A stretch of DNA of 64,000 nt from Bdellovibrionales bacterium (GTDB taxonomy: Bacteria > Bdellovibrionota > Bdellovibrionia > Bdellovibrionales > UBA1609): the NCBI GenBank assembly GCA_020630675.1, contig JAHDIR010000006.1:21132-85131 (forward strand), read 5' to 3'. The notes under the pieces were generated by a model. The model was not told the DNA's origin, ran no database searches, and saw only the letters and a list, made by a program, of their open reading frames with translations. Both the position numbers and the translations under genes were made by a program. Below, piece by piece: positions 31,333 through 49,242 of this stretch (position 1 is its first letter; each line of letters opens with the position of its first letter).

Positions 31333-33231
31333 TTATTTTTTGAGATCTTCTAATAGGGGCGAAACAGTGAATGTTTCGCCTTTTTTAGTGGTATAAGTCA
31401 GTTGGGTTTGGTTGTAGCCATAGGGGTTGTTAATGATACCAGAGCTTTCAAATCGAAACTCTAAAATTCCCGTTAGTAAAACTCGGCATTGCTTATTTTG
31501 CCACACGACGATATTTCCTGAAAGGCTTAAGCCGACCAGTCTTTGCATCCAAGGTTCTGTGGTGACTGAGTTGACTTGACAGTGATGACTAAAATCAATT
31601 TTTTCTTGTTGCCCAATAAAACTATTTTCATACTTGAGGTGAGTAGATTTTGTAATCACAAAGTCTATAATTTCTTCGTCAGATTTTAAAAACTGCTCTT
31701 CTTGTTCTTCAAGCGATTGTGCTCTAATCTTAATGTACTTATGATATTTCTTTACTTTGATGCGGCCAGAGTCATCGAGTAGGGCTCTTAAGCCCACACC
31801 GTCTTGAATTTTGACTGCCTTCGTTGGCGTAGTGGCTTGTAATTCATCAGGGCTATACTCAAGGCTAATAACACTGTACTCTAAAGGAAGTTCATCTTCT
31901 CTTTTTAATCGTCCAAAGTTCACAACTCCTTCCGTGTCTATTGCATAGAAAGAAAAACCATAATGGTTAGGTGTAATGCTTTTAATATTATTAGGTGTGT
32001 TTAACTTAGGAAAAGTGAGCTCTTTAAATTCAGAGTTATAAAAGCTCACTTGCCCGTTGTTTTGTAATAAGACAAGGTTTCTGCCATGAAGTAAATGGAG
32101 CGAGCTGACATTGTTTACTCGGTCGAAATTTATGTAATCTCTGTCGTCATTCGAGTTAATACCTTCGATCATCAAAGTATCATCGTTGTTTAAAATTAAG
32201 TTTCTATTGACCTTAAGTTCTGGGTTAAATGTACGAAATAATTTTTTGGCTTGAGGTAGATAAGGCGCGATATGGTCATTATGGTAATCATCGACTTGTC
32301 TTTTATCTGGAGCCCAAGAATAAATTTGCTTGTCTTTGGAATAAACATGAATGCCATGGGTTTTTGAGTTATGTGATAGACTTTCAGTAGGGCCCAGCTT
32401 ATTGATTTCATGAATTGGAGAGAACTCTTTAAATAAAGGGTCATAACTTAAAACCTCTTGTTTAGAGTTAAGGGCAACAATGACATCGTTATATTGAGCT
32501 TGTTCAAACATATGATTGAACCTGTGGGCGGCAAAATCGTTGGCAGTATTTAAAGCTAATTTTCGATCACTATCGTTAAATGCATGACCTTTCGTTTTTG
32601 CCACTAAAATTAAAAACCAGTATTCAACACTGTAGGCACCAGCAAACTTGATCCTTTTTTCTAAAGCGTCGTCACAACCTGCCACTCCTTGTAAGTTGCC
32701 CTGGTAACAATCAGCATGCATAGCGCTTTTAGGGTTAGAGTGAGTGGCTTCGTGAATCATGACAGATAATTGGCTTACCAGCGGACTTTCTAATAGAAGT
32801 TTAGGAACTAAGAGCTCTCCGGTGTTTAAATCGTAAGCTCCAATAGCGCGAGAGGCGGTGTCAAAGCGAAGGCCCTTAAGGTTTTGCCCCATAAAAAATT
32901 GCCAAGGCTTTTTTAGGGCTTGAGTGACTTCGTTATTAATTTCTTCTGGAAAACTCTCAAACTCAAAAGACATAAAAAATTGAAGTGTTTTTATCAATTG
33001 TGAAAGGTAACTATTCTGACAGTCAGGTGAAGCCGCAAGAAAAGATTTATGGTCAATGTTGATAGGGATGTTTTTTAAATCAACTTTGTTTTGCTCGGTG
33101 AGAGCACATTGCTTTGTGGGGTTTATTTGTAAACTATTTGGTGTTGGCTCAGCATAAGAAACATTTTTAAAAACTAAAAGCGTATACAATGCTAAGTAAA
33201 ATACAAAAGGTTTGCCTTTTATTAACCTCAT
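31333..33231 (-). CDS. secreted hypothetical protein with an HExxH zinc-metallopeptidase-like motif
   Basis: Signal peptide (LALYTLLVFKNVSYA) and the motif VMIHEATHSNPKSAMH (HExxH plus a downstream His). The C-terminal ~350 aa are beta-rich. It converges on murD with only 8 nt between the stops. Confidence 0.55.
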   Translation of the reverse strand: MRLIKGKPFVFYLALYTLLVFKNVSYAEPTPNSLQINPTKQCALTEQNKVDLKNIPINIDHKSFLAASPDCQNSYLSQLIKTLQFFMSFEFESFPEEINNEVTQALKKPWQFFMGQNLKGLRFDTASRAIGAYDLNTGELLVPKLLLESPLVSQLSVMIHEATHSNPKSAMHADCYQGNLQGVAGCDDALEKRIKFAGAYSVEYWFLILVAKTKGHAFNDSDRKLALNTANDFAAHRFNHMFEQAQYNDVIVALNSKQEVLSYDPLFKEFSPIHEINKLGPTESLSHNSKTHGIHVYSKDKQIYSWAPDKRQVDDYHNDHIAPYLPQAKKLFRTFNPELKVNRNLILNNDDTLMIEGINSNDDRDYINFDRVNNVSSLHLLHGRNLVLLQNNGQVSFYNSEFKELTFPKLNTPNNIKSITPNHYGFSFYAIDTEGVVNFGRLKREDELPLEYSVISLEYSPDELQATTPTKAVKIQDGVGLRALLDDSGRIKVKKYHKYIKIRAQSLEEQEEQFLKSDEEIIDFVITKSTHLKYENSFIGQQEKIDFSHHCQVNSVTTEPWMQRLVGLSLSGNIVVWQNKQCRVLLTGILEFRFESSGIINNPYGYNQTQLTYTTKKGETFTVSPLLEDLKK

Positions 33232-33585
33232 TTATCCCTCCCAAGATAGCCTTGGTTTACCATGGGCAAATGTCGATCGAGGACCATTTTTTCTGAATAT
33301 GTAAAAAATTGAGATTTGCATAGATTTTTCTTATGGGAGGTAAATCACTTAATTTTTAAGGAGTTGGGTTGCTTACTTGCAGGGCACAACTTTAGTAGTG
33401 TTTTAAAAAGTTGAGAGTTATTAGATAGATATATTATTGAGTCTCTAGGCTATTTATGTTCCCATAAAGGTATAAGAAGTGAATGAGTTTGTTTTTTTAA
33501 CAAAAAAATAGTCCTTTCACAGTTTTTGATGATTAAAAAACCAATAGAAGATTCAGCTTTAAAAAGCAGCACAAGGAGAGTCTAA

Positions 33586-34215
33586 ATGAAGTTAATAATT
33601 GGAATGATGGTGGCCCTTTTAATGACGTCTTGTTCGTCCAATAAAAAAGTAGAAACTCAAGCTCAAGAAGTTGTTAAAACGGAAGTGGAAACCAAAGCTG
33701 AGCCCGTTCAAGAAGAAGCGCCAGGAGTTCCTGAGGTGAGCGTTCCGGCAGCAACAACGGCAGAATTACCAATGATCACTGGAGACTCGATATTAGATGT
33801 AAACTGTGCTTTAGGGAGAGATCAAAGAACAATAAGTTTATTAAAAAGAACTGATGCTCAAGGTTGGGGAGTTGTTTACGAGAAGTTTGGCACTAAAAAG
33901 ACAATAGCGATTGCACAAAATGACAAAAGTTTTTGTGATGAAGTTGTCGGTCGTGTGAAATCAAATTTACAAAATGCCGGTTTTCAGTGTGATGGAGAGG
34001 GGGCTGTTTCTTCAGCTCCGGCTTCTGGTGCAGAAGAAGCCAGTGCGAACATTCAAGAAAAAACAAATATAGACAAGGCCAAAGAAGATGTGACGAATGC
34101 TAAAGAAAGTGCCGGAGCTATTATTGATAAAACAAAAGAAGGGGCCGTGAAAGTTATGGATAAGGCCAAAGAAACAGTAAAAGAAGTTGTGAATGAAGCA
34201 AAAGGTGATGAGTGA
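33586..34215 (+). CDS. lipoprotein with a Cys-containing central domain and a K/E/A-rich repeat tail
   Basis: Lipobox LLMTSC, an acidic linker, a central segment with 3 Cys, and a C-terminal repetitive tail (DKAKEDV.., DKTKEGA.., DKAKETV..). The stop TGA overlaps the GTG start of ftsW. Confidence 0.7.
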   Translation: MKLIIGMMVALLMTSCSSNKKVETQAQEVVKTEVETKAEPVQEEAPGVPEVSVPAATTAELPMITGDSILDVNCALGRDQRTISLLKRTDAQGWGVVYEKFGTKKTIAIAQNDKSFCDEVVGRVKSNLQNAGFQCDGEGAVSSAPASGAEEASANIQEKTNIDKAKEDVTNAKESAGAIIDKTKEGAVKVMDKAKETVKEVVNEAKGDE

Positions 34216-35321: not shown

Positions 35322-35341
35322 TAATGTTCAATGGTTACAAT

Positions 35342-36226
35342 TTAGGCTTTAATATCAAAAGAGCCCAAGCTATGTAGTTTTTCACATAAATCTTGATTTC
35401 CTGTTTTAGAAATGAGCTGCGACATTTTTTCAATTTTCAAACTTTGGCTTTTGTGCCAAAAGGTTTCTTGTTTTAAATTTACTTTTTGCTCATGAGATAA
35501 ATGTCCAGCAGTAATCTCTAAAGACTTAGTGACCCAGTCGGCTTCAATTAATGAACGCACAAAGTTATGGGTAAGGTGAATAATCTGTTCATTTTGAGCG
35601 GCTAAGTTGCCACTTTTTTTTGTTAAGACAACACCCATGCCGTGATGTCCGACCTCATCTTTAATGATATCGTTAAATACCAAAGCCAATTCGGGGTTTA
35701 GGCAGGAATCTCTGAGTTGCGAGTAATGCATAAGACCAAACCCCTCAAGGATCACTTGAATGGTGAAGGTCATTGATTCTTTTGAGCCTTGCTGAAGACA
35801 AAGGTTAAGGGCCGATAGTAAGGGGTGAAGGTTTAAATTTTGGGGGTGTTCTCCCAATAGAAATGGCTCAATCATAAGTCGGTGTCGAACCTCATCACCT
35901 GCAAACAACGAGTATAAAGATTTCTCTTCTTCGCTTTCAGCAAGTTCAATCATCCGGGCCCCGTAGTTTAAGCCAAACTTTTCAATAAAATATATGAGCT
36001 CTAAGCTCCAGCGGTTTAATCTTAAAACCACCTCATTTTTTTGTATCTCACTCATTGAATTGTAAATAGACGAGCGTTGTAATTGATAATGGCCTTCGGC
36101 CCAATAAGGTTTGGTTCCTGTATTTTTAGTTGCTGGTATGCCGCTCACAGATCTCATGAGGGTGTGGAGGGGGTCTTTGTCTCCTAAGCGCCGGCAAAGC
36201 ATGCTATGATCGTGTTGTTTTTCCAA
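35342..36226 (-). CDS. ferritin-like di-iron carboxylate protein (putative oxygenase/hydroxylase)
   Basis: Two E...ExxH half-sites: ELIYFIEKFG...AGDEVRH and VILEGFG...IKDEVGHH. This is the signature of four-helix-bundle di-iron enzymes. The subfamily is not identified. Confidence 0.55.
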   Translation of the reverse strand: MEKQHDHSMLCRRLGDKDPLHTLMRSVSGIPATKNTGTKPYWAEGHYQLQRSSIYNSMSEIQKNEVVLRLNRWSLELIYFIEKFGLNYGARMIELAESEEEKSLYSLFAGDEVRHRLMIEPFLLGEHPQNLNLHPLLSALNLCLQQGSKESMTFTIQVILEGFGLMHYSQLRDSCLNPELALVFNDIIKDEVGHHGMGVVLTKKSGNLAAQNEQIIHLTHNFVRSLIEADWVTKSLEITAGHLSHEQKVNLKQETFWHKSQSLKIEKMSQLISKTGNQDLCEKLHSLGSFDIKA

Positions 36227-36848
36227 GGGACCCCCTTTCTATATGGCCTTTCATGGCTCGGCTGTGAGCAGGTAAAAAGTCGTGATCTAAAATTTTTGTA
36301 CCAGGGCCAAGACTACTTTGTGCCCCTATGATGGCATACTTTCCAATAGAGACCTTTTGAATATAAGAGCTTAATTCTCCCTTTTGGCGAATTAAAAAGT
36401 GTGAACCTAAAAGTGTTTCTCCACCAATGAACGAGTAGTCATCAACTTCAATTAATGAACGATCATAAACTCTAGCCGTTGGAGCCCATATAACTTTTTT
36501 ACCAATATGACTTCCCCATAAACGAAGCCAAGTGCTGAACCCCCCAGGGATAATAATTAGAACTCTTTCAAAGGCGGGAAAACAAATGAAATTATATTGT
36601 AAGTAATGAGAGATTAGCCAAGCAGATCCTTTTTTACTTTTATTTCCCAGCGTTTCTTTGCCAAGTTTAATTTTTAATCTTAAAGCCTTCCAGGTCAAAA
36701 GGGGAACTAAATAAATACAAAAAAATAGGTTTAAAAAACTGTAAATCGTTGGGTGAATAATGGCCCATGCAAAGCTGAATAAAATAATCAGTAAATGAAA
36801 AAGGGGGAAGTATCGCATGAGAATTTCGATAAACTTCATTAAGTTCAT
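36204..36848 (-). CDS. membrane-anchored hexapeptide-repeat (left-handed beta-helix) acyltransferase
   Basis: Two N-terminal TM helices, then the WLRLWGSHIGKKVIW...IEVDDYSFIGGETLLGSH...VSIGKYAIIGAQSSLGPGTKI pattern typical of WcaF/LbH acetyltransferases. Confidence 0.6.
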   Translation of the reverse strand: MNLMKFIEILMRYFPLFHLLIILFSFAWAIIHPTIYSFLNLFFCIYLVPLLTWKALRLKIKLGKETLGNKSKKGSAWLISHYLQYNFICFPAFERVLIIIPGGFSTWLRLWGSHIGKKVIWAPTARVYDRSLIEVDDYSFIGGETLLGSHFLIRQKGELSSYIQKVSIGKYAIIGAQSSLGPGTKILDHDFLPAHSRAMKGHIERGSLGKTTRS

Positions 36849-36867
36849 AGCCCCTCCTTTTTTAGAG

Positions 36868-37542
36868 TTAAGTTAGAGATCCGCTCAGTCTTTTGTAAAT
36901 ACGTTTTTCGTTTCTTATGAGGCGAGCTGTGGATAACAAAACATCTTCGATTTCGCCAATGAGCATTGAATAGTAAATTTTACGATTGGGGCAGTAAATA
37001 GAACCATTGCTTTGCATGCCAAATTTAGAAAAAAGTTTTACATTGTGAGGTTTGCAAATGGCAACAAGTCCCTGGCAGCCTCGCAAAGAAAATACTTCTA
37101 AGCCAGACACACATAATAGGTATTGAACAATTACGGCTAAAGTGATGTGATCTAAGTCTTGCGAGGTGACAAGTCGTCCAATTTCCCAATAATTATCAAA
37201 CTGATTATAATTTATATTTAAGCCTTCGTAGTCTTCAATTTCAAAGGGGCGACAAATGAGTCTTAAAGAAGCAAGTATTTCTCCTTGATGAGATACAACA
37301 AAAGTTAATCCACGTGAGTCTAGATGAGCTTCTAGTTCTCTTTCTTGGGTTTGTAAAAGGTGTGGAGCTTTGGCCAAATAGTATTTAGTTCTGTGTTCCC
37401 AAACTTGTCGGTATAAAATTTGGTGTTCGGCTTGAGCGCTGTCTTTATCTATAATATCAACGCTTAAAAGGTCAGAAAAGATGCGTTTCATCTTTCTTGT
37501 GGATTGTACGGCTGGAAATGTATCTATCGTTAGATCGGTCAT
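36868..37542 (-). CDS. GNAT-fold N-acyltransferase resembling LuxI / N-acyl amino acid synthase family
   Basis: ILYRQVW...ELEAHLDSRGLTFVVSHQGEILASLRLI...YWEIGRLV mirrors the conserved R..vF / D.yD / g..RL / wE.sR blocks of this superfamily. The assignment is tentative. Confidence 0.45.
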   Translation of the reverse strand: MTDLTIDTFPAVQSTRKMKRIFSDLLSVDIIDKDSAQAEHQILYRQVWEHRTKYYLAKAPHLLQTQERELEAHLDSRGLTFVVSHQGEILASLRLICRPFEIEDYEGLNINYNQFDNYWEIGRLVTSQDLDHITLAVIVQYLLCVSGLEVFSLRGCQGLVAICKPHNVKLFSKFGMQSNGSIYCPNRKIYYSMLIGEIEDVLLSTARLIRNEKRIYKRLSGSLT

Positions 37543-37619
37543 AGATTTAACTTAATAGAATTTAAGAAATGTCACAATGAGAGTCGTCCTTTGCAGAATT
37601 TTCAAACTTGAAAATTGGC

Positions 37620-38291
37620 TTAAGGCTGTAAAGTCTTCGTGGTGACAGAATTTACTTGGAGTTCTGTTTTTAGCTTTTCAAGGTTTTCGTTCCATAAGTC
37701 TTCCCAGCGCACAGCTAAAAGAGGTTGGGCTTGAAGCCCCAGAGACCAGCCACGAGACACCTCATTTAAAAGCAAGGGAAGCTCTTTAGGCTTTCGAAGT
37801 AAAAAATGAATAAAAGATAAAGCAATGATAAGGCCCGACAGGGGAGATTGCAATTGAGCGTAGTAAAAGCTAATGAGTCCGGCTTCTCCTTCATCGCTGG
37901 TTTCAAACCCGGTGAGTAGGTGCCATAAGTCATGTGTTTTTCTAAGTCGATAAGCTAGGTAAGCGTATTCCGAGCTGTCTTGTTGGGGGGCTTTAAATTT
38001 ATAAAAATGAGGGTCGAGGTTTTGTTTTACAATATAGTTATAAAATTCACGACCCAAAGACAAAGGGGGGAGCTGAGCTAATAAAGAAAAATCAAAGTCT
38101 TGTCGGCCGTACTGTTCTTCAAATAATTTTTGTGTTGCTGGATCACTCTTAGCCTTGTTCACTGAGTTTTGTCTTGAGTTTTTTGTGGTGATGGCATTTC
38201 CAAGCTTTAAAACCGAACGTACATCTTTAGGGTTTGCCAAGTACTTTAGTACACATTTTATAATAATTATTTTTTGAACCAGTCCAGACAA
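37620..38291 (-). CDS. Coq4-family protein (HDxxH-x11-E zinc-site motif)
   Basis: KTHDLWHLLTGFETSDEGEAGL matches the Coq4 HDxxH...E signature. The ORF contains no Met codon, so a TTG (38291) or other non-ATG start is required. Confidence 0.6.
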   Translation of the reverse strand: MSGLVQKIIIIKCVLKYLANPKDVRSVLKLGNAITTKNSRQNSVNKAKSDPATQKLFEEQYGRQDFDFSLLAQLPPLSLGREFYNYIVKQNLDPHFYKFKAPQQDSSEYAYLAYRLRKTHDLWHLLTGFETSDEGEAGLISFYYAQLQSPLSGLIIALSFIHFLLRKPKELPLLLNEVSRGWSLGLQAQPLLAVRWEDLWNENLEKLKTELQVNSVTTKTLQP

Positions 38292-38392
38292 TGTAAAAAA
38301 CTCCTTCTTGTCGATCGTGGTTTTCTACGGCAAGAGCTTGTTTTATATTAACAATTGGTGGTTCTGGCAAATAGAAGGGGAGAAATATAGAA

Positions 38393-38962
38393 ATGTTTTT
38401 TGAGAAAAATATGCTTTCAGGAATTTATTTCATTGTTACTCTTTGTGCAATACTGTCTTTTTTGCATTCTAGTCTTTTTGTTTTTAAAAACCCCAATCAT
38501 AAAAATAAAACCACTAAACTATTTTTAAAAATTCCGACTTTACTTCTTTGGTTTTCGTTTCCGATTCACTTTTTGTTTGTTCCTGGTAGTATAAACTTGC
38601 AAAGTTTGCCTTTGGCTTTGGTTTTTAGTTCAATGGCTTTGATGGTTTACTGGTTTTCTGTTTACTCTAAAAGAAACTACACCTTTTCGGTTATTCATAG
38701 CGACTTAGACAGCTCTGGGCTTTGTCGGGATAATATTTATTCTTTAGTGGCTCACCCCTTTTATCTAGCTTACATAATTGGGTATGTTTCTATTTTTTTG
38801 GCTATGCCAAACCTTATACACTTTTTTTTAACGACACTTCTCATCGCTGTTTACTTTAGAGCGGCTTACCAAGAAAAACATCAAATTTTACAAAGCAGTA
38901 TTGGAGCTGAATATAAGGCTTACTTAAAGACGGTGGGGATGTTTTTTCCTCGTTTTTTTTAG
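38393..38962 (+). CDS. ICMT/PEMT-family integral membrane methyltransferase
   Basis: Polytopic protein. VAHPFYLAYIIGYVSIF plus RAAYQEKHQILQSSIGAEYKAYLKTVGMFFP resemble the RHPxYxG and EE..L...fG.eY..Y blocks of the isoprenylcysteine carboxyl / phospholipid methyltransferase family. Confidence 0.55.
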   Translation: MFFEKNMLSGIYFIVTLCAILSFLHSSLFVFKNPNHKNKTTKLFLKIPTLLLWFSFPIHFLFVPGSINLQSLPLALVFSSMALMVYWFSVYSKRNYTFSVIHSDLDSSGLCRDNIYSLVAHPFYLAYIIGYVSIFLAMPNLIHFFLTTLLIAVYFRAAYQEKHQILQSSIGAEYKAYLKTVGMFFPRFF

Positions 38963-39103: not shown

Positions 39104-40170
39104 ATGAAGCAAAAAGTGATTTTAGCCGCCGGAGGAACAGGTGGCCACATTTATCCAGCCATTGCCGTTGCAGATGTTTTGAAAAAATCAAATTTAGACA
39201 TACTATTTTGGGGAGCCACTCAAGGGCTTGAAAATAAAATTGTTCCACAGGCGAACTACTCTTTGACGACAGTTAAGATGGGACGACTAAATAGTAACGT
39301 TCGTAAAAGTGAAAGATTACTCACTTTATTTTTATTACCTTTAGCTTTTTTGAAAGCTATTTACATACTTTTAATGAATAGGCCTCTTTTTGTTTTGGGA
39401 TTTGGCGGTCACGCTTCGGCGCCTTTACTTTTAGCTTCTAGAATATTCCTAGTTATATTTGGGAGCCAAATGCTTTACCAGGGTTGGCCAACCGAAAATT
39501 ATCACAATTTGTTGATGAAGCTTTTGTTGTTTTCGAAGCCGCCAAAAAAAAGATGAAGTGCCCAAGTCAGGATTTTGGGTTGCCCATTCGAAAAGACGTT
39601 GAAAACACAGCTTTTGTTGAAAAACCAATTTCATCAAGTTTTAATGTTTTGATTTACGGAGGCTCACAAGGTTCTCGGGCCATAAATAATTTAATTACTG
39701 AAATTGTAAAAAATGGGCTCCTTTCTTCTGATGTTCAATTGAAGTTACAAACAGGTGTAAAGAATTTTCAAGAGGTTAAGTCGTTAGGTTTAGATCACCC
39801 GCAGTTAGAGATCGTGGAATATCTTCATGATATGCCATCGGAGTACGCTTGGGCTGACCTTACAATAGCTCGAGCCGGAACAGGGACCATCTCTGAGCTG
39901 GCTTCAGTGGGTATGCCTAGTCTTTTGATTCCTTTGCCGACATCGGCAGATAACCACCAATATGTGAATGCTCATAGCTTAGTTGAAAAAGGGGCCTCTA
40001 TTTTGTTGGAAGAAAAAAACCTAACAGCAGCGGTGTTGTGGGAGCAAATCTTAAGCTTAAAAAAGAACAAAGAAAGCTTGCTTAGGCTATCACAAAATAT
40101 TAAAAGTTTTTACAAGCCCCAAGCTGCTGAAAATATAGCGGCCTACTTGTTAAAAAAACACAATTCCTAG
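39104..40170 (+). pseudogene. murG: murG (undecaprenyl-PP-MurNAc-pentapeptide GlcNAc transferase) with its reading frame broken by a 1-nt shift near 39442
   Basis: The ORF at 39104-39556 encodes the MurG N-terminus (AAGGTGGHIYPAIAV...GFGGHASAPLLLASR). A second frame, open from 39442, continues NIPSYIWEPNALPGLANRKLSQF... through the C-domain (RAGTGTISELA) to 40170. One extra A in ...tctaga|atattcct... would restore the frame. Confidence 0.85.
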
Positions 40171-42437: not shown

Positions 42438-43718
42438 TTAATTTAAAAATTGAACGTCAAAAATTTCTTGAGTATCAAGGTTTACTTTTAATGACTGCAC
42501 CGGTGTTTCTTTGTTTTCTATCAATACCGTTAATTTAGAAAATTTATCTCGAGTTAAGAACAATACTTTTTCTGGAAAGCTAAATTGGTCTACTTTAATA
42601 GTGGCATGAACCCATTCTTTTTTAACGATGAGTGGGTGGTGGTAATCAACGACCTCGGTATGACAGATACGACTGGGTTGACCATCCTTACTGTAGCCGA
42701 GAGATTGAAAAAACATTTGGGATTGACCATTTTTATTAAAGCCTATTTGTTGAAATAAACATTGAATGGAAACATTTAGTTTTAATGGTGATAGGTCTGG
42801 AGTTAAGAACGAAAAATCAATAAGAGTAGTTTCTTGCAGTGAGAAAAACTCAGGGTAGAGTCCGTGAAAGTAAAACGGAGACTCAGCTATTACATTTAAA
42901 GTTTGGTTTTGATTAAAATCAAAACTTCCGTGCATGATAGGGCCGTCATCACGCCAAGTTTTAAAACCCAACCAGCTGCCTCGGTCGACTTCTAAATCAA
43001 ACTCGTTAACCTCTTTGTGGTAGTGAAAGTTGGGAAACATTGGGCTAAATTTAGCTTTGTTAAGTTCTTGGTGCCAAATGTTTTGGTTGATTTCCTTAAA
43101 GTTTTCAGAGGTGACCAGGGCGTTGAGTTTTCTTATGTTAAAAGACGTATTGTTAAATCTAAGAAGAATGTTTTCTCGATAAAAAAGTTCATGTAAAATT
43201 AAGCGAGCTTGTTGATCTAGAGTTAATTCCTTCCAAACCGTATTATATATTGTTAGGTTTAAGCGACCTTGTCTTAAACCATTTTGGTAAATCGGTTCTA
43301 TTTGCTCTAGGGCTAATTGTAATTGGCAGTCTTCAGCAATTTTAATGGGTCCCAAGCCATAATACTTTTGGTTAGCTGGTAGTAGTGCTTCTTTTTGATT
43401 GAGATAAAATATATTAGTTCGATAATCGACTTTTGCTTTTGACCAGAAGTTATTAAATTGAAATCGGTAGTTTTTTGCTCTATTGGGATCGATGGATTGT
43501 AATTTGTTAAGGAGGTGGTTAACCTTTTCGTTTAAGTTGAGACCAGGTAGGGAAGCGTAGGTTAAGTTATGCTTAACTTCACCTTCATAGGTATCAAATA
43601 CTTGCTTTTTTCCAGAGCAATTAATAATAAAGCCGCCGTTTCCAACCTTACCCCATGAGTAAGCTGTTATTGGCATCATTAGGAAAAGTCCGCATAGAAG
43701 ATAAATAGATTTACTCAT
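42438..43718 (-). CDS. secreted hypothetical protein
   Basis: Signal peptide, then a WGKVGNGG...FDTYEG N-terminal motif. No family recognised. 4-nt overlap with the upstream regulator gene. Confidence 0.5.
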   Translation of the reverse strand: MSKSIYLLCGLFLMMPITAYSWGKVGNGGFIINCSGKKQVFDTYEGEVKHNLTYASLPGLNLNEKVNHLLNKLQSIDPNRAKNYRFQFNNFWSKAKVDYRTNIFYLNQKEALLPANQKYYGLGPIKIAEDCQLQLALEQIEPIYQNGLRQGRLNLTIYNTVWKELTLDQQARLILHELFYRENILLRFNNTSFNIRKLNALVTSENFKEINQNIWHQELNKAKFSPMFPNFHYHKEVNEFDLEVDRGSWLGFKTWRDDGPIMHGSFDFNQNQTLNVIAESPFYFHGLYPEFFSLQETTLIDFSFLTPDLSPLKLNVSIQCLFQQIGFNKNGQSQMFFQSLGYSKDGQPSRICHTEVVDYHHPLIVKKEWVHATIKVDQFSFPEKVLFLTRDKFSKLTVLIENKETPVQSLKVNLDTQEIFDVQFLN

Positions 43719-44563
43719 TTAGGCTCCTTTTTATTATTAATTTGACTGAGAGGAAAAAACTGCATTTGTATTTGATAAATCTCATCACCTTCATCAGTAT
43801 CCATAGACTCGGCAAAGGTATTAAGAAACTCTCGTAAGAGTTTTTTGGCTTGTGGTAATTTACTTTGTTTAAAACAAAGAGTGCCCGATAAGTATTCTCT
43901 TTCATCAATTCCAAATTGCTTTAAACCTTGCTGGGCATTTTTTAACATAGATGTATGATAGCTTTGAATGGCAGAACTAGTAATGTCTTCACTTGTTGAG
44001 ATATTACCATTTTTTAAATTTATTTTTTTATTTTTAACTTCAATTAAATTTGATTTTTTTAAGTTATCAATAGCTTGATAAACTTCCGCTTCTGAGACAG
44101 AAAAATTTAAATTTTGACTAATCCATGGGATGCTAAATTTAAATTTTTTTAATCGACTCATTTCTCTTATAGCGTAATGAAACCATTTACCGATCACCTC
44201 AAAGGTTCGTAAATCAATAAGGTTAAGGCTATCTTGAGTGCCAGATTGTGAAAGTCTTTGGAGTAAAACTGACTTCATTTGCGGGTTATTTTTTATCTTG
44301 GCCACCTTAATAAGGTCAATGAAGTGAGCTTTTTCTTTTTGATTTAATTTTAAATTACAACAAAGACTTTGAGTAATTTGATGGCCAGGGGCACGCTCAC
44401 CATTAATAATTTTTGAAATCGAAGATGTAGATTTCAGCCCGAGCTCTATTGACCATTGCCGAAGGCTCCATCGCCGATTTTGGTTTTTTTTAAAATAAAC
44501 AACGTCATTCAAATACGAACAATAATCATTGTAGTTTCTAATTTTTGGCTCGACGTTTGGCAT
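43715..44563 (-). CDS. TIGR02147/DUF4423-type putative HTH regulator
   Basis: N-terminal YNDYCSYLNDVVYFKK...WSLRQWSIELGLKSTSSISKIINGERAP (XRE-like HTH), about 280 aa in total. This architecture is typical of the TIGR02147 family expanded in Fibrobacter, Bdellovibrio and Leptospira. Called from memory. Confidence 0.6.
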   Translation of the reverse strand: MPNVEPKIRNYNDYCSYLNDVVYFKKNQNRRWSLRQWSIELGLKSTSSISKIINGERAPGHQITQSLCCNLKLNQKEKAHFIDLIKVAKIKNNPQMKSVLLQRLSQSGTQDSLNLIDLRTFEVIGKWFHYAIREMSRLKKFKFSIPWISQNLNFSVSEAEVYQAIDNLKKSNLIEVKNKKINLKNGNISTSEDITSSAIQSYHTSMLKNAQQGLKQFGIDEREYLSGTLCFKQSKLPQAKKLLREFLNTFAESMDTDEGDEIYQIQMQFFPLSQINNKKEPK

Positions 44564-44788
44564 TATTTAAAAGTTCCTTTATTTTTTTTAAGTTTACATA
44601 AATGTTGGCAAAATTAAAAGATTTTTTTGCCTACAAAGAAAAATAGCTTTGGCGGCCTTTTTCTAAAGGGCTTTTGAGGTCGAGTCTGTGCTTATAAGTT
44701 GAAAAATATAATTTGACCCGAATTCGAATCGTTTGCCACAATCTTTTAGAAGTTAAGTTTTTTTAAATGAGGCCAAGGAGGGTTTCTT

Positions 44789-47700
44789 ATGAAAGTGCTG
44801 CTGTTAATGCTTATTGGAGTATTTAATTTTTCCTGGTTAGTTCAGGCTAACCCAAACCCTTCGAGAAATATCGATAGCTTATCGGTCACCAAAGAAAAGT
44901 GGGAGCTTTATAAGCTTTTGGATGATATCGAGCAAGAGCTTAATTATAATGAACAATCACAAACACAAATTGAACGTTCATTTAATTTTTTTGAAAACTC
45001 TTTTAAGGCTTTGCTTTTTAGAGGTCCTCGTCCAGGTAAAGGGCTTGCAAAAATATCCTTTGAAGAAGGTCAGCAGTATAACTTTGGACATACAACTGTC
45101 GGCGGACAAAGTTCTGCCCAATTAAAATTGGTAAATACTGGTGACCAAACAGCCGAGGCTATCAGCTTTAGTGGTATGACAGCCCCTTTTTCATTTAAAG
45201 GGGGAGGGTACCCTGGTAAGGGAGGAACTTGTGGAACAACTCTTGCCCCCGAGGGCAGTTGCACTGTTGTTATTGAAGTTGAGCCAACAAGTACGAGCCT
45301 GGTTACAAATGTTTTAACAGTTATTTATGATGATGGGAATGACAAGCAAGAATCTTCTATTGATTTACAAAGTACAGGAGTGTCTCCTGCCATATTAACC
45401 ATTAGTGAAACAGACCCTTATGATTTTGGTGATGTGACGGCCGGTGCCGTTAATTCATTATTTCTTATTATTACGAATACAGGGGGCACTGCAGCGACTT
45501 CTATGAGTGGAGTTCATTTAGTGTCTCCCTTTTATTTTGCAGGTGGGAGTTACCCTGGTGCGGGTGGCACCTGTACAACAGCATTAAATCCAGGCACAAC
45601 TTGTTCAGTGGTTATTAACTTTGCGCCGGTATCAACGGGGTATGTTCTAGAAACTCTAGAGCTCAACTACTTTGATGGAGCTGCGACAGTGGCCACAACA
45701 AGAAACTTACAAGGCACGGGCTTGTCACCAGCTATATTAACAATAAGTGAGACTGACCCCTATAATTTTGGTGAAGTGACTGAAAACGGAGAAGCTGTAA
45801 GAACATTCACTGTAACAAATACAGGTGGTTCCAAAGCGGGCTCCATATCTGGTTTTGGTTTAACTCGGCCCTTTTTGTTTTCGGGGGGTGGTTTTCCAGG
45901 AAATGGTGGAGATTGTCGCACAACACTTTCTCCAGGTTCCCTCTGTCAAATAGCAATTACTTTTGCGCCGACGGCATCAGGGGTAGCCTTTGATACCTTG
46001 GAGTTAAACTACTTAGATGGGGCCGCTGCACAGACCTCAACCAGAGACTTAACTGGCTATGCCAGTGCGCCTGCTTTATTAAGCATAAAGCCATCTTTGA
46101 CCATCGATTTTGGAAATGTGCCCCTACAAGGAGAGAGTGTGGTTATGTTAACAGTCACAAACACGGGGGGCTCTGAGGCTCGGTCAATCCATGCTTTAGG
46201 TCTAAGTGCTCCCTTTTCTTATACTGGCTTAGGCTACCCAGGAACAGGTGGTGATTGTGGATCGTCGTTGCCAGCAGGTACCTATTGTCAATTGAGTATA
46301 TCATTCTCTCCTTCTCGTCAGGTGAGTAGTCTTGAAACCTTGAGTCTTAATTATTTTGATGGTGTAAAAGTAAAGACATCTTCGAAGAGTTTAAGAGGAA
46401 GAGGAGTTACACCAGCTGTTTTAACAATTTCAAATGCTCCTGAGTGGGATTTTGGAACTGTGGTTGTTGGTACAAAAAATAGAGTTCATTTGACGGTCAC
46501 AAACTCAGGAGGTTTTGAGGCATGGTCTCTGGAAGGGTTGGGGCTAGCAGCTCCGTTTTCATTTGAGGGAGGAAGCTTCCCTGGAACAACAGGTGATTGT
46601 GGGGTAACCTTAAAAGCAACGGCCTCTTGCACTTTGGCAATTTTATATTCTCCAATGGCAGTTTCGGCCGATTTTGATAAGCTTATGCTCAATTACGATG
46701 ATGGGGTCTTTAGGCAAACCGCATTCAGAGGCCTGCAAGGCGCTGCCGTGGCTCCTGCAAAATTGACAATAAGTGAGGTCGACCCTTATGATTTTGGTCT
46801 TGTTGAAATGGGTCAGCAGATTTTCCAGACATTTATTATTACAAATACTGGAGGAGCAAGAGCCACCCAGATAAAAGAAGTATCGCTTGCCACGCCATTC
46901 TTATGGAAAAAAAGAAGAGCCTCACAGAAAAAAAATCAACGAGATTGTAACTCATCATTATCTTCAGGTGATTTTTGCGAAATGGTGGTGAGCTTTGAGC
47001 CAACATCTTCAGGAGTTTTTTCTGGGTCACTGAGTTTAGACTATCATTCAGGAGTCAGTTCTGAGCAAAGTTTTAGAACGGTTGTGGGAACAGGGGCAAA
47101 CTCTGCCAACTTGGTGCTAAGTGATGGGCCTACCTATGACTTTTTAGAGGTAGCTCCTGGTCACAAAGCGTCTCATATTTTTACCTTAACTAACTCAGGA
47201 GGCATGCCAGCTGACAATATTCATTACAGCTCATTACAGGCTCCATTTAGCTTTGCTGGTGGACTATTTCCTGGTGTTGGCGGAACGTGCACGTCTATTT
47301 TATCTTCTGGATCGAGTTGTACCCTAAGTGTTGAATATGCACCTCTGGTTCCTAGTGCTGCAGATCAGGCAGAGTTAAGTATAAGTTACTCCACAGGCCA
47401 TACAATAATGTACGCAAAGCGACAGTTAGTAGGGTCGTCAAAGGGTTTACCAAAACTTGAATTTTTGAGCGGAAACTTCTTTTTTAATTTAGGGCATCGT
47501 CCAGTGGGCAGTGTTAGTTTTGCCACCTTCACGATCATTAACAATGGGTCGGCAGGGGCAACACTTAAAGAGGCTCAAATTCCTGCCCCTTTCTTTGTAG
47601 TAAAGAAGGGCCCGGTACTAAACAAAGAGGCTTGTCATAAAAAGCTGTCTCCTGGGCAACACTGTCAACTCATAGTGAAGTTTGCTCCAAAAACATTGGG

Positions 47701-48250
47701 ACCTTTTGCCGACTATGTGCTGTCGATGACCTATACAAGTTCAGACGGAGCAGCTAATTCTGTGAGCAAGTTTATCACAGCCTACGCCAGTACACCTGCG
47801 AAATTAACGATCAGTGATGGTCCTGTTTATGACTTTGGTAATCAGCCACTAAAAACAAAAGTATATAAAGAGTTTGAGGTTGTGAATATTGGGCAAACGG
47901 CAGCTTACCTAAACGAGTATAGATTTAGATGGCCACAAAACAGTCCGGCTTTTTCCTTTCTAAAGGGTAAGCGACCTTGTGGGCAAAAAATTAAGCCTGG
48001 CGAGAGCTGTAGTTTTAAAGTGAGCTTTTATGCTTATGCAAGTAAAGAATATAAGGCGGCCGCTTGGCTGGGGTATCACGATGGTGTGGCAAATACATGG
48101 GCCACAAGAGAGCTTCGTGGCAGTTCTTTTAGTTCAGATAATTTTGAGCAAGGATTGGAATGGGTTGTCTCACAAGATTATTTTGATCCGGTGGAAAATA
48201 ATAAAATTGAATCAAGCTCTCATAAGCAGGAGGTTTCTTTGCTTCAGTAG
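44789..48250 (+). CDS. large secreted protein with nine tandem ASH / choice-of-anchor-D-like Ig-fold repeats
   Basis: Signal peptide, a ~60-aa helical N-module, then nine ~114-aa units. Each unit has (D/E)FG.V..G, T(V/I)TNTGG, PF.F.GG.(Y/F)PG.GG.C and an invariant C-x9-C. Confidence 0.8.
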   Translation: MKVLLLMLIGVFNFSWLVQANPNPSRNIDSLSVTKEKWELYKLLDDIEQELNYNEQSQTQIERSFNFFENSFKALLFRGPRPGKGLAKISFEEGQQYNFGHTTVGGQSSAQLKLVNTGDQTAEAISFSGMTAPFSFKGGGYPGKGGTCGTTLAPEGSCTVVIEVEPTSTSLVTNVLTVIYDDGNDKQESSIDLQSTGVSPAILTISETDPYDFGDVTAGAVNSLFLIITNTGGTAATSMSGVHLVSPFYFAGGSYPGAGGTCTTALNPGTTCSVVINFAPVSTGYVLETLELNYFDGAATVATTRNLQGTGLSPAILTISETDPYNFGEVTENGEAVRTFTVTNTGGSKAGSISGFGLTRPFLFSGGGFPGNGGDCRTTLSPGSLCQIAITFAPTASGVAFDTLELNYLDGAAAQTSTRDLTGYASAPALLSIKPSLTIDFGNVPLQGESVVMLTVTNTGGSEARSIHALGLSAPFSYTGLGYPGTGGDCGSSLPAGTYCQLSISFSPSRQVSSLETLSLNYFDGVKVKTSSKSLRGRGVTPAVLTISNAPEWDFGTVVVGTKNRVHLTVTNSGGFEAWSLEGLGLAAPFSFEGGSFPGTTGDCGVTLKATASCTLAILYSPMAVSADFDKLMLNYDDGVFRQTAFRGLQGAAVAPAKLTISEVDPYDFGLVEMGQQIFQTFIITNTGGARATQIKEVSLATPFLWKKRRASQKKNQRDCNSSLSSGDFCEMVVSFEPTSSGVFSGSLSLDYHSGVSSEQSFRTVVGTGANSANLVLSDGPTYDFLEVAPGHKASHIFTLTNSGGMPADNIHYSSLQAPFSFAGGLFPGVGGTCTSILSSGSSCTLSVEYAPLVPSAADQAELSISYSTGHTIMYAKRQLVGSSKGLPKLEFLSGNFFFNLGHRPVGSVSFATFTIINNGSAGATLKEAQIPAPFFVVKKGPVLNKEACHKKLSPGQHCQLIVKFAPKTLGPFADYVLSMTYTSSDGAANSVSKFITAYASTPAKLTISDGPVYDFGNQPLKTKVYKEFEVVNIGQTAAYLNEYRFRWPQNSPAFSFLKGKRPCGQKIKPGESCSFKVSFYAYASKEYKAAAWLGYHDGVANTWATRELRGSSFSSDNFEQGLEWVVSQDYFDPVENNKIESSSHKQEVSLLQ
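45038..48120 (+). repeat. intragenic tandem repeat array, nine units of about 342 bp
   Basis: Repeat 2 starts at 45383 (tctcctgccatattaacc) and repeat 3 at 45725 (tcaccagctatattaaca), exactly 342 bp apart with clear nucleotide similarity. Later units are more diverged. The outer boundaries are approximate. Confidence 0.75.
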
Positions 48251-48331
48251 ATAATCAATTAAAAAAATGCCTTCATTGATGGAGGCGAAAAGATAAAAAA
48301 ATTGTTAATTCAAATAAAAAAAGGATTTTTT

Positions 48332-48958
48332 ATGAAAAAATTAATCACGCGTTCAATACTTGTAAACTTTATTTGTGGGGCTATTTTATTGCCAATGAGT
48401 TTGGCCACTGTCGAAAAAACATCCACCTTAAAAAAATCAGACCTATATAAATTAGTTTATAAAATCAGAGAAGAACTCAACGAAAACTTACACACAAAAA
48501 AGCAGGTCAAAAAAAGTTATCGTTACCTTGTAGGGGCTTACAAAACATTAACTGAGCCAGAACATAAAATTCAAAATCAGCAATGGGCTCAACTATTAGT
48601 GTTAGATTCCCACAGCCATAACTTTGGCTCATTAAATATTTTATCTAAAAAGAGTGTGAAGAAAAATATTTCTCTTTTGTATTCAGGAAATACCCCTGTG
48701 ACGGATATTGTTTTAATGTATGACGGCGCCGTCTTGCTAACAAATAGTGATCAGGAAAGAAAACAAGCCCAATGGCAGAGCTCAGCTTTTAGCGTTTCAT
48801 CGACCTGTGATTTTTCTTTGCTTGAGCAAGAATGTCAGTTGTCTGTTGAGTTTTTTCCTCAAAGTAAAACAAACTATGAAATGAACCTAGAGGTTCATTA
48901 TCAAGCGGGCTTTGAAGAGAAGGTTTTAACTTTAAGCTTTATGGGCAAGGGAGTTTAA
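48332..48958 (+). CDS. small secreted paralogue: the same N-terminal helical module plus one ASH-like domain
   Basis: Signal peptide. DLYKLVYKIREELNENLHTKKQVKKSYRYLVGAYKTL aligns with ELYKLLDDIEQELNYNEQSQTQIERSFNFFENSFKAL of the giant protein. The C-terminal domain has HNFGSLN... and C-x8-C...VEFFP. Confidence 0.65.
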   Translation: MKKLITRSILVNFICGAILLPMSLATVEKTSTLKKSDLYKLVYKIREELNENLHTKKQVKKSYRYLVGAYKTLTEPEHKIQNQQWAQLLVLDSHSHNFGSLNILSKKSVKKNISLLYSGNTPVTDIVLMYDGAVLLTNSDQERKQAQWQSSAFSVSSTCDFSLLEQECQLSVEFFPQSKTNYEMNLEVHYQAGFEEKVLTLSFMGKGV

Positions 48959-49242
48959 AAGTTTATTGAGATAGTTGGAGTTGTATCAGGCCTCTATGGG
49001 TGGTTTTATTCCTGTACTTACGGTGCTTTAGGTCTGTTTTATATTGTTTTTTCAAAAAGTTCAAAAAGAAAGGTGAACAAGAATTTGTAGCTTATACCCT
49101 TTGGTGGGATTGGCTATAAGTTTGACAGTGTAGCCTTGAAGATATTTCTAAAAATAAGCTTTTGTTTGATTATAACCTAAGATTTTCTTACTTATAAACT
49201 TTGAGCGAGTTGAAATAATAACTAAAACTTGGAGCTGTTTTT

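Follow-up and report, generated by a model that had tools for sequence, protein, structure and literature searches.

A five-gene cassette restricted to Bdellovibrionota that may make a tailored fatty-acyl amide

The window (the whole 64,000-nt stretch of Bdellovibrionales DNA that was analysed) contains five adjacent genes that we read, with moderate confidence, as a self-contained membrane-associated biosynthetic cassette most likely making a tailored fatty-acyl amide, either an N-acyl amino-acid-type lipid or a diffusible signal. The cassette was found only in Bdellovibrionota, the predatory Bdellovibrio-type bacteria. Its features are as follows:

35342-36226, minus strand: di-iron protein gene (294 aa), the last gene of the operon
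36204-36848, minus strand: predicted beta-helix acyltransferase gene (214 aa)
36868-37542, minus strand: LuxI/FeeM-like GNAT gene (224 aa)
37620-38291, minus strand: Coq4-family gene (223 aa), the first gene of the minus-strand operon
38292-38392, no strand: divergent intergenic region of 101 nt between the Coq4-family and methyltransferase genes
38393-38962, plus strand: predicted ICMT-type methyltransferase gene (189 aa), divergent

A preliminary description had proposed five ORFs arranged as a four-gene minus-strand operon with a divergent fifth gene, and exactly this layout was recovered; the operon is tight. According to the ORF coordinates, the spacing between consecutive minus-strand genes is −23, 19 and 77 nt. 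The 23-nt overlap of the di-iron and beta-helix genes, also described earlier, hinges on a TTG start at 36226; it agrees with the coordinates and with a strong Shine-Dalgarno sequence (AAAGGGGG) 4 nt before this TTG, while an in-frame ATG 24 nt 3' of it has none. The same overlap is present in loci L001 and L002. The 223 aa given for the Coq4-family protein correspond to the longest ORF, and an alternative 206-aa call exists. Because each of the five has syntenic conserved homologues in other genomes, these are real genes and not chance ORFs. Judged from the sequence, the overlapping or near-abutting reading frames indicate co-translation.

The 101-nt divergent region presumably carries a shared promoter or regulatory region, and the divergent layout is kept in L001, L002, L004, L005, L024 and L027-L031. 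A promoter scan of this region returned only weak sigma-70-like matches at or below chance level, and an Rfam search of it gave no match. The GC and GC3 values of the cassette agree with those of the host; repeats, tRNAs and integrase genes were looked for at the cassette and none were found.

The genes were confirmed to travel together elsewhere. The same five-gene order occurs in at least seven other Bdellovibrionota assemblies (L001, L002, L004, L005, L024/25, L029, L031), in differing neighbourhoods; all related loci come from uncultured MAG or metagenome contigs. The core of GNAT, beta-helix and di-iron genes is present in about 20 of 23 species-level genomes, with the beta-helix gene adjoining the di-iron gene in 22 of 23 loci and the GNAT gene within 2.2 kb of this pair in about 20. 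Beside this core, Coq4 plus ICMT (8 loci) and a PF14518 heme-oxygenase-like di-iron oxidase (16 loci), sometimes fused to an FkbM methyltransferase, are mutually exclusive, and Coq4 is missing from two thirds of loci. Coq4 and ICMT may form an exchangeable tailoring module, replaced in other lineages by the heme-oxygenase-like oxidase with or without an FkbM methyltransferase or a His-box membrane enzyme. Genes for an acyl carrier protein, an acyl-CoA ligase or an exporter are absent from the conserved block.

It is very unlikely that the five genes are independent, share no pathway and are neighbours only through the common ancestry of related genomes. All loci belong to one phylum, and some flanking genes are also common to close relatives (L001/L002/L004; L005/L029/L031); however, the five-gene block keeps its order and boundaries at 41–57% protein identity amid differing neighbourhoods, the core trio survives changes of order and strand at 22–39% identity, and the reading frames point to co-translation.

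The 224-aa protein belongs to the LuxI/FeeM-like GNAT acyltransferases; as a putative N-acyl amide synthase it would set the scaffold of the product. Its AF2 model (pLDDT 88) retrieved 343 GNAT matches in Foldseek, with SidF and the AHL synthases RpaI, MesI and BjaI among the best; the AHL synthases had the highest query-normalised TM-scores (about 0.55–0.58). A profile of 59 relatives matched the AHL synthase TofI (3P2F) at 1.4e-10, the RL..P and E.SR motifs coinciding, and LasI at 0.02. Residues R94, E101, E120 and R123 are invariant. FeeM was the commonest Pfam match among the 59 relatives (20); PF13444, the OlsB-type family, was matched weakly by 8 and Autoind_synth by 5. The window protein alone scored 15.9 bits against FeeM (cut-off 27) and had no Autoind_synth match even at E ≤ 1.

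FeeM-type N-acyl amino acid synthases (PF21926) have the LuxI-like GNAT fold and share RL..P and E.SR with the window protein, and eDNA clusters built on them produce tailored N-acyl amino acids. In contrast to these systems, the GNAT family profile fails to reach the FeeM structure in the PDB, no ACP gene adjoins the cassette GNAT, and no tailoring set of Coq4, di-iron, TM-anchored beta-helix and ICMT proteins was described in the literature searched.

Alternatively, the GNAT could be a divergent LuxI, an AHL-type quorum-sensing synthase using SAM and acyl-ACP or acyl-CoA, with the other four enzymes modifying the signal. Among the LuxI-family synthases (TofI, LasI, BjaI), TofI is its best solved sequence relative, and the LasI match, the AHL synthases at the top of the Foldseek results and the Autoind_synth matches of five relatives point the same way. 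We nevertheless consider this unlikely, given the lack of an Autoind_synth match for the window protein and the preference of its relatives for FeeM (20 versus 5). In the TofI alignment, Tyr stands where LuxI has the Trp of its 'lgW' segment, and Ser stands at the second position of the D..D pair. N-terminal residues presumably involved in SAM binding are only partly kept. In none of the loci does the cassette contain or adjoin a gene for a LuxR-type regulator, and we know of no AHL system with a membrane-anchored second acyltransferase.

The 294-aa protein is a soluble ferritin-like di-iron carboxylate protein and a putative O2-activating oxygenase or oxidase. Across 26 homologues, the ligand motifs E82, E112xxH115, E161 and E191xxH194 never vary, and neither do H134, H195 and D190. 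The all-helical AF2 model (pLDDT 89) had as top Foldseek matches aldehyde-deformylating oxygenase (ADO), AurF/CmlI, PaaA and RNR R2 (prob 1.0, E ~4e-3). ADO, AurF/CmlI and PaaA share with it the four-helix-bundle core and the two E...ExxH ligand sets, and the structure that matches best belongs to ADO, which binds substrates with long fatty chains. However, the window protein is only 10–14% identical to these enzymes and lies outside the Pfam families: a Pfam search gave it no match, and Ferritin_2 was matched weakly by 16 of the 26 family members. The extra invariant His residues of the family (H134, H167, H195) do not sit at the positions known from AurF. With solved relatives only at E ~4e-3, it could be a ferritin-like protein other than an oxygenase.

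The Coq4-family protein matched PF05019 at 1.4e-24 (87 bits, cut-off 22.9) and, in the PDB, 3MSQ at 1.3e-27 and 6E12 (Alr8543) at 1.5e-22. It is a true member of the COQ4/Alr8543 family, its HDLWH-x11-E representing the HDxxH-x11-E metal motif. This motif and the binuclear site of COQ4 have been described, and COQ4 is a C1 oxidative decarboxylase with a hydrophobic tunnel beside the active site (PMC10680789). Unlike COQ4, the window protein keeps company with acyltransferases rather than quinone genes, and two thirds of cassette versions do without its gene and carry the heme-oxygenase-like oxidase instead.

These two proteins could suggest a quinone (ubiquinone-like) ring module in which Coq4 performs C1 oxidative decarboxylation, the di-iron protein acts as a Coq7-like ring hydroxylase and the methyltransferase O-methylates. 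Coq7 is a ferritin-like di-iron hydroxylase with two ExxH motifs, and the solid Coq4 membership and the decarboxylase activity of COQ4 also fit. We find this reading highly improbable: COQ7 was matched by none of the 26 di-iron family members in Pfam and was not among the top Foldseek matches, and the block lacks a UbiA-type prenyltransferase, a UbiE/UbiG-type methyltransferase and a polyprenyl synthase. To our knowledge, quinone synthesis has no role for two acyltransferases, and known quinone O- or C-methyltransferases are not ICMT-type. The quinone-like compound offered as one option in the preliminary description is further weakened by the linkage of the di-iron gene to GNAT and beta-helix genes (20–22 of 23 loci) and not to Coq4, which two thirds of the loci lack.

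The 214-aa protein is predicted to be a membrane-anchored left-handed beta-helix (hexapeptide) acyltransferase, with two hydrophobic helices at its N-terminus (residues 6-56 form a hydrophobic stretch) and a WcaF/MAT-type LbH domain after them. Its family profile matched maltose/galactoside O-acetyltransferases at 3e-9, the invariant H150 aligning with their His-containing 'TATHPL' segment, presumably at the catalytic His. WcaF was matched by 20 of 20 members and the Pls/PosA NRPS terminal domain TIGR02353 by 19 (best 4e-14), all below curated cut-offs. The C-terminal membrane condensation domains of the Pls/PosA homopoly-amino-acid synthetases consist of repeated units of two TM helices plus a left-handed beta-helix, as in the window protein, and in PosA modelling three units form a membrane pseudo-trimer (PMC10522769). 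In contrast, the window protein is a stand-alone single unit without adenylation or carrier domains, scores are far under the 423-bit TIGR02353 cut-off, and WcaF scores equally well.

The 189-aa protein is predicted to be an ICMT-family polytopic membrane methyltransferase with at least four hydrophobic segments. Pfam matches to PEMT (8e-5) and ICMT (2e-3) were just under cut-offs, and NCBIfam gave weak matches to isoprenylcysteine MT, MddA and LmtA (the last at 8.5e-5). A profile of six orthologues matched Methanosarcina ICMT (Ma-ICMT, 4A2N) over its full length at 5.4e-14 and insect ICMT at 1e-8. HPFY and a C-terminal E...Y..Y motif are invariant in the family; Ma-ICMT, PEMT, MddA and LmtA are likewise polytopic and share HP.Y and the C-terminal E...Y. 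However, the window protein lies under the Pfam and NCBIfam cut-offs of each named family, and in it the Arg of the usual RHP.Y motif is replaced by Ala.

All five earlier family assignments were right at superfamily level: Coq4 by its strong PF05019 match and motif, the GNAT by family profile and fold, the di-iron protein by invariant motifs and a fitting fold, the hexapeptide acyltransferase by profile matches and hydrophobic N-terminus, and the ICMT/PEMT-type enzyme by its match to 4A2N.

The cassette is flanked by FtsW (PF01098, 3.5e-100) and MurG (PF03033 and PF04101), and the full dcw cluster, from mraZ to ftsZ, lies inside the window. This position, previously called striking, lost its weight: no ftsW, murG or other dcw genes were found near any of about 30 related loci, and unrelated genes break up the dcw cluster of the genome studied at three points. 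The position is therefore idiosyncratic, and our best explanation includes no functional tie of the cassette to cell division, with the ftsW-murG site being a lineage-specific rearrangement. A dcw-linked envelope unit that O-acetylates, methylates or hydroxylates peptidoglycan precursors, lipid A or surface polysaccharide is accordingly very doubtful. The site itself, the WcaF matches (a family of exopolysaccharide acetyltransferases) and the match to the lipid A methyltransferase LmtA would suit it, but these matches are all far under curated cut-offs, dcw, lipid A and polysaccharide genes adjoin none of the other loci, the cassette is antisense to the dcw genes, and the cluster holds two further unrelated insertions. 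We also know of no role for a LuxI/FeeM-like GNAT or Coq4 in envelope pathways.

In the proposed route to a fatty-acyl amide, the GNAT would N-acylate an amino acid or a related amine, drawing the fatty acyl chain from acyl-ACP or acyl-CoA; the result would be a lipidated head group whose carboxylate stays free. The soluble di-iron enzyme would then hydroxylate or desaturate the N-acyl intermediate with O2, and the translationally coupled beta-helix acyltransferase, held by its two-TM anchor, would carry out a second acylation or an acetylation at the membrane, forming an ester or an amide; its trimer is probably similar to the Pls/PosA domain. The Coq4-family binuclear-metal enzyme may perform a further O2-dependent head-group modification, the known chemistry of this family being oxidative decarboxylation or hydroxylation of a lipid-tailed aromatic acid. 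Finally, the ICMT-type enzyme may methylate the lipidated product at a carboxylate or at some other anionic group, in parallel with the action of its family on N-acylated prenylcysteine. Lipid-tailed carboxylates are substrates of both ICMT and Coq4, and of the five proteins three are either membrane-bound or members of families working on lipidated substrates. If Coq4 decarboxylated the sole carboxylate, carboxyl methylation would be left without a target, and the two steps would then need different groups or different chemistry. The window GNAT, beta-helix protein and methyltransferase fall under the curated cut-offs of every named family, and homology does not reveal their specific chemistry.

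The earlier outline of N-acylation, second acylation, oxygenation and methylation is a reasonable inference; the family assignments and the co-occurrence were supported, the emphasis on dcw position was not, and the quinone-like option is weakened. The statement that no pathway with this gene set had been described agrees with our literature searches, which likewise found none. On the best reading, the cassette encodes an uncharacterised pathway confined to the phylum, whose product would be an N-acyl amide lipid or signal that undergoes oxygenation, further acylation and methylation.

The ornithine/aminolipid route, in which OlsB-OlsA are followed by OlsC/D/E hydroxylases and the OlsG methyltransferase, follows the same logic: GNAT-type N-acylation of an amino acid, second acylation, hydroxylation and methylation of a membrane lipid. 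However, every cassette enzyme is of another family: a beta-helix protein takes the place of the PlsC-type second acyltransferase, a soluble ferritin-like protein is the candidate hydroxylase and the methyltransferase is ICMT-type. A PlsC-type gene lies 3' of the cassette in just a single subclade of close relatives (L005/L029/L031), where it flanks the cassette as a pair with a 366-aa gene. Flanking genes of clusters 22, 23 and 29 are common to the close relatives L001/L002/L004.

The five ORFs of the cassette are present in the window exactly as placed by the preliminary description, with FtsW and MurG genes as flanks:

35342-36226, minus strand: di-iron protein, ORF of 294 aa
36204-36848, minus strand: hexapeptide (beta-helix) protein, ORF of 214 aa
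36868-37542, minus strand: GNAT, ORF of 224 aa
37620-38291, minus strand: Coq4-like protein, ORF of 223 aa
38393-38962, plus strand: methyltransferase, ORF of 189 aa

On the minus strand, the intervals between the four genes are −23, 19 and 77 nt; the methyltransferase gene lies divergent from them across 101 nt. The 23-nt overlap of the hexapeptide and di-iron genes depends on a TTG start of the latter; a strong Shine-Dalgarno sequence (AAAGGGGG) lies 4 nt before this start, whereas the following in-frame ATG lacks one. An equal overlap was found in the related loci L001 and L002. In a promoter/terminator scan, promoter-like sites were no more numerous than in shuffled sequences. The ftsW and di-iron genes converge, with only 20 nt (35322-35341) between their stop codons; no terminator-like hairpin was detected in this stretch, and transcripts coming from either gene would continue antisense into its neighbour.

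A scan with the di-iron protein alignment, covering one genome per GTDB species, yielded 23 loci, whose neighbourhoods were compared using tblastn and clustering. Twenty-one are titled Bdellovibrionota (Bdellovibrionales, Bdellovibrionaceae, Bacteriovoracaceae, Halobacteriovorax, Bacteriovoracia); the records of the other two, L003 and L008, say no more than "bacterium" and "Proteobacteria bacterium". All five genes retain their order and orientation in L001, L002, L004 and L005, and the block recurs in the further metagenome contigs L024/25, L029 and L031; the genes initially described as a set do occur together elsewhere. L003 carries the block minus Coq4 only, and the divergent methyltransferase-Coq4 pair was found at the contig ends of L027, L028 and L030. 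The hexapeptide and di-iron genes adjoin in 22 of the 23 loci, with GNAT nearby in approximately 20. Sixteen loci lack the Coq4 and ICMT-type genes and carry instead a di-iron oxidase of the heme-oxygenase-like type (PF14518, 1.9e-17). In L007, L008 and L013 this oxidase forms a fusion with an FkbM methyltransferase, and a PD40 beta-propeller or a membrane protein with three His boxes is often found with it. The two accessory sets co-occur in no locus. The linkage of the core and the mutual exclusion of the accessory sets thus define a unit in which three conserved core genes, for GNAT, the TM-anchored beta-helix acyltransferase and the di-iron protein, are combined with exchangeable oxidase and methyltransferase modules. 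This organization, which goes beyond the preliminary description, is the strongest argument for a single pathway. Mere neighbourhood inheritance of independent genes is unlikely, because the core outlives rearrangement at 22-39% identity.

Several local features accompany the cassette in the related loci. Most loci of Bacteriovoracaceae/Halobacteriovorax type have the PF14518 oxidase beside the core trio (L006-L010 and L013-L023; e.g., L006:8574-9326 and L007:6832-8466). The three-His-box membrane protein (HEWAAH, HASHH, HFSHH) occurs in six of these PF14518 loci (L006:6755-7900, L007:5807-6835, L008, L013, L017 and L020); it recalls desaturase/alkane-hydroxylase enzymes and has no Pfam match. 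A response-regulator/HD-GYP-like protein adjoins the cassette in four loci of different sub-lineages (L003:6501-7841, L018:10750-12658, L019:4508-6410 and L023:10822-12712), which could reflect a regulatory link or coincidence. In L011:9794-10621 and L012:10870-11697, a 275-aa protein with no Pfam match and no detectable similarity to GNAT occupies the expected place of GNAT, downstream and on the opposite strand; it may be a highly divergent GNAT substitute. In one Bacteriovoracaceae MAG, a lone di-iron gene lies about 6 kb from a separate group that comprises two heme-oxygenase-like oxidases, the His-box protein and the GNAT but lacks a beta-helix gene (L020:15629-18864 and L020:10001-10726); a beta-helix and di-iron pair of the same MAG lies on contig L011.

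Profile and fold searches upheld all five initial family guesses at the superfamily level, with uneven strength. By sequence, the Coq4 protein is a clear member of PF05019 (87.1 bits against a cut-off of 22.9, residues 9-215 of 223 covered), matching the solved bacterial homologues PDB 3MSQ (1.3e-27) and Alr8543 (6E12, 1.5e-22). Its translation contains HDLWH-LLTGFETSDEG-E, which corresponds to the HDxxH-x11-E metal-binding motif defined for Coq4 (PMC10680789). COQ4 performs the oxidative decarboxylation of an aromatic acid with a lipid tail; its binuclear metal site adjoins a hydrophobic tunnel, and the protein has withstood attempts at in-vitro assay (PMC10680789). The predicted polytopic methyltransferase narrowly missed the thresholds of both ICMT (PF04140; 18.8 bits, threshold 24) and PEMT (PF04191; 23.4 bits, threshold 25). 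At superfamily level, a profile of six methyltransferase sequences matched the Methanosarcina ICMT (Ma-ICMT) over the full length at 5.4e-14.

The di-iron protein of the window had no Pfam match, and a phmmer search of the single sequence against PDB gave chance matches only. Among 26 homologues, E82/E112xxH115 and E161/E191xxH194 are invariant, and weak matches were obtained to Ferritin_2 (16 of 26), Rubrerythrin and RNR-small. The structural model (pLDDT 89) has a ferritin-like helical bundle, and its nearest solved relatives are aldehyde-deformylating oxygenase (ADO), AurF/CmlI, PaaA and RNR R2 (probability 1.0, E only ~4e-3). These data point to a ferritin-like di-iron carboxylate protein, with two E...ExxH sets predicted on a four-helix bundle. 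No family member matched COQ7 or Ald_deCOase, and one matched AurF (0.076). A Coq7-like identity was rejected in view of the structural matches, the locus linkage and the absence of COQ7 matches.

The beta-helix protein begins with a hydrophobic segment (residues 6-56). Its single sequence scored 18.4 against Hexapep, below the cut-off of 27; the family profile matched maltose/galactoside O-acetyltransferases at 3e-9 (maltose transacetylase 2IC7). The invariant H150 of the family aligned with the His of the "TATHPL" segment of MAT/GAT enzymes, which we take to be their catalytic residue. The protein thus fits the MAT/GAT/WcaF branch of left-handed beta-helix acyltransferases, with the active-site His kept. 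WcaF was matched by 20 of 20 orthologues and the Pls/PosA NRPS terminal domain (TIGR02353) by 19 of 20, all far below curated cut-offs; for the window protein, the best scores against WcaF, HpsU and TIGR02353 were 19-29 bits, with NCBIfam cut-offs of 192-423. Judged by these scores, it is related to all three families and a member of none. Pls/PosA synthetases form amide bonds, so amide- as well as ester-forming chemistry is possible for the beta-helix enzyme. In PosA modelling, the polymerisation domain of Pls/PosA consists of three [2-TM + beta-helix] repeats arranged as a pseudo-trimer (PMC10522769); as a homotrimer, the cassette protein would reproduce this architecture.

The AlphaFold (AF2) model of the GNAT (pLDDT 88) shows the GNAT alpha/beta fold. 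Its PDB matches at E<=1e-3 number 343; every one of the 50 listed is a GNAT-fold acyltransferase, with SidF and the AHL synthases RpaI, MesI and BjaI among the top ones. Only 165 relatives were recovered when 1.84 billion representatives were searched exhaustively with an HMM. The window protein alone matched FeeM (PF21926) with 15.9 bits (E 0.012), below the Pfam threshold of 27 bits. FeeM was weakly matched by 5 of 19 cassette orthologues and was the commonest Pfam match among 59 of the wider relatives (20/59), ahead of the LuxI-type AHL synthase family Autoind_synth, PF00765 (5/59 at E<=0.01). A profile of the 19 cassette GNATs found nothing in PDB; only that of the 59 relatives reached the AHL synthase TofI (1.4e-10), in an alignment that includes the RL..P and E.SR core. 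An AHL-type signal is a possible product of the cassette, although three observations speak against it. The window GNAT had no Autoind_synth match at E<=1, and no LuxR was found near the cassette. In addition, LuxI residues are kept only in part at the N-terminus: the core R94, E120 and R123 match TofI, whereas Tyr replaces the LuxI Trp and Ser the second Asp of D..D, presumably residues of the SAM site in LuxI-type synthases.

LuxI/FeeM-type enzymes join the acyl group of a fatty thioester to an amine through an amide bond, and the GNAT would accordingly perform the scaffold-forming step. Since the di-iron gene is translationally coupled to that of the beta-helix acyltransferase, the di-iron protein might oxygenate the intermediate and the beta-helix enzyme acylate the new group, or the two proteins might form a membrane complex. 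The substrate of ICMT enzymes is an N-acylated, lipidated cysteine, whose free carboxylate they methylate; COQ4 and ICMT chemistry would both be compatible with a lipidated carboxylate-bearing intermediate, e.g., an N-acyl amino acid. That Coq4 and heme-oxygenase-like oxidases alternate so cleanly points to an O2-dependent modification of the head group as the Coq4 step. Characterised heme-oxygenase-like oxidases catalyse oxidative decarboxylations and C-C cleavages.

Another reading is modification of a quinone; in ubiquinone biosynthesis, Coq4 acts in the C1 oxidative decarboxylation of a polyprenyl-hydroxybenzoate. This reading is undercut by the di-iron protein not being Coq7-like, by most cassette versions dispensing with Coq4, and by the absence of a prenyltransferase and a quinone methyltransferase; no quinone genes were found in the cassette or its copies in related loci. 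Unlike the ornithine-lipid system OlsB/OlsA, the cassette has no match to PF13444 (OlsB-type) in the window GNAT and no PlsC-type gene in the window. In L029:8370-10221, L031:3739-5588 and L005:5992-7830, a 366-aa protein without assigned family and a PlsC-type acyltransferase (PF01553) come after the cassette. This pair is absent from the window and the other loci; it resembles an OlsA analogue but was not counted with the cassette, being confined to one closely related subclade (66-80% identity).

Each cassette protein comes from a known superfamily, and the general logic is like that of FeeM-type and ornithine-lipid-type pathways. As far as our searches reach, the specific families, their combination and their modular exchange are undescribed: literature searches on Coq4 homologues, Coq4 gene clusters and Bdellovibrio N-acyl amino acid synthases yielded no description of this gene set, in line with the initial remark that no such described pathway was known. 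The most far-reaching reading, which we put forward tentatively and regard as rather unlikely, is that the cassette holds the first Coq4-family enzyme recruited to a task other than quinone biosynthesis. The products of the cassette would be N-acyl amide lipids or signals of a new class, oxygenated, doubly acylated and methyl-esterified, and specific to predatory Bdellovibrionota, with Coq4 + ICMT and the heme-oxygenase-like oxidase (± FkbM) as interchangeable modules on the common core. The cassette could also open genetic access to compounds of the N-acyl amino-acid methyl-ester type, for which we know of no biosynthetic genes so far; among known product classes, the one nearest to a pairing of GNAT and carboxyl-methyltransferase comes from unrelated bacteria.

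If the pathway proposed above is right, predatory bacteria have a conserved route of their own to a modified acyl-amide lipid or signal, built of enzyme families not known to work together and including a di-iron family without a Pfam model and a stand-alone form of the poly-lysine/ornithine synthetase membrane condensation unit. A non-quinone Coq4 protein would then be a tractable bacterial handle on Coq4 chemistry. The alternation of Coq4/ICMT with the heme-oxygenase-like oxidase and FkbM would be a natural experiment in which equivalent tailoring chemistries can be compared.

The division and cell wall (dcw) cluster of the window is complete (mraZ, rsmH, ftsI, murE, murF, mraY, murD, ftsW, murG, murC, murB, ftsQ, ftsA, ftsZ). 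It is interrupted three times, by the cassette between ftsW and murG and at two further sites:

31333-34215, murD-ftsW: 632-aa minus-strand ORF and 209-aa lipoprotein-like ORF
42438-50169, murB-ftsQ: five unrelated ORFs, namely orf426 (minus strand), DUF4423 (minus strand), a 1153-aa HYDIN/ASH/DUF1573 Ig-like repeat protein, a 218-aa ORF and a 308-aa ORF

The 218-aa and 308-aa ORFs had no Pfam match, and no ddl was recognised between murB and ftsQ. None of ftsW, murG, murD, murC and murB lies within 10 kb of the cassette genes in any of the 23 genome loci, and no dcw genes were found in the flanks of the further metagenome contigs examined; the neighbourhoods of the related loci also differ among themselves. 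The position in the dcw cluster, initially considered striking, thus loses its significance, as linkage is not conserved and the cluster is broken three times here. The same lack of linkage undercuts an envelope modification connected with the dcw neighbours. Recent horizontal insertion was dropped as the cause of the position, since no Rfam match, meaningful flanking direct or inverted repeats or tRNA in the window was found and the GC and GC3 of the cassette equal those of the neighbouring host genes. The location results from local rearrangement of a loosened cluster and is no evidence of a division role; because it is incidental, the finding has no bearing on cell division.

In the window, murG (39104-40170) is split into two overlapping ORFs, a 150-aa N-domain and a 228-aa C-domain, with a frameshift near 39441-39444. 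One added A in "AGAAT" would restore a continuous MurG (...LLLASRNIPSYIWEPNALPGLANRKL...). The split reflects either an indel from sequencing or assembly or a true frameshift of this essential gene.
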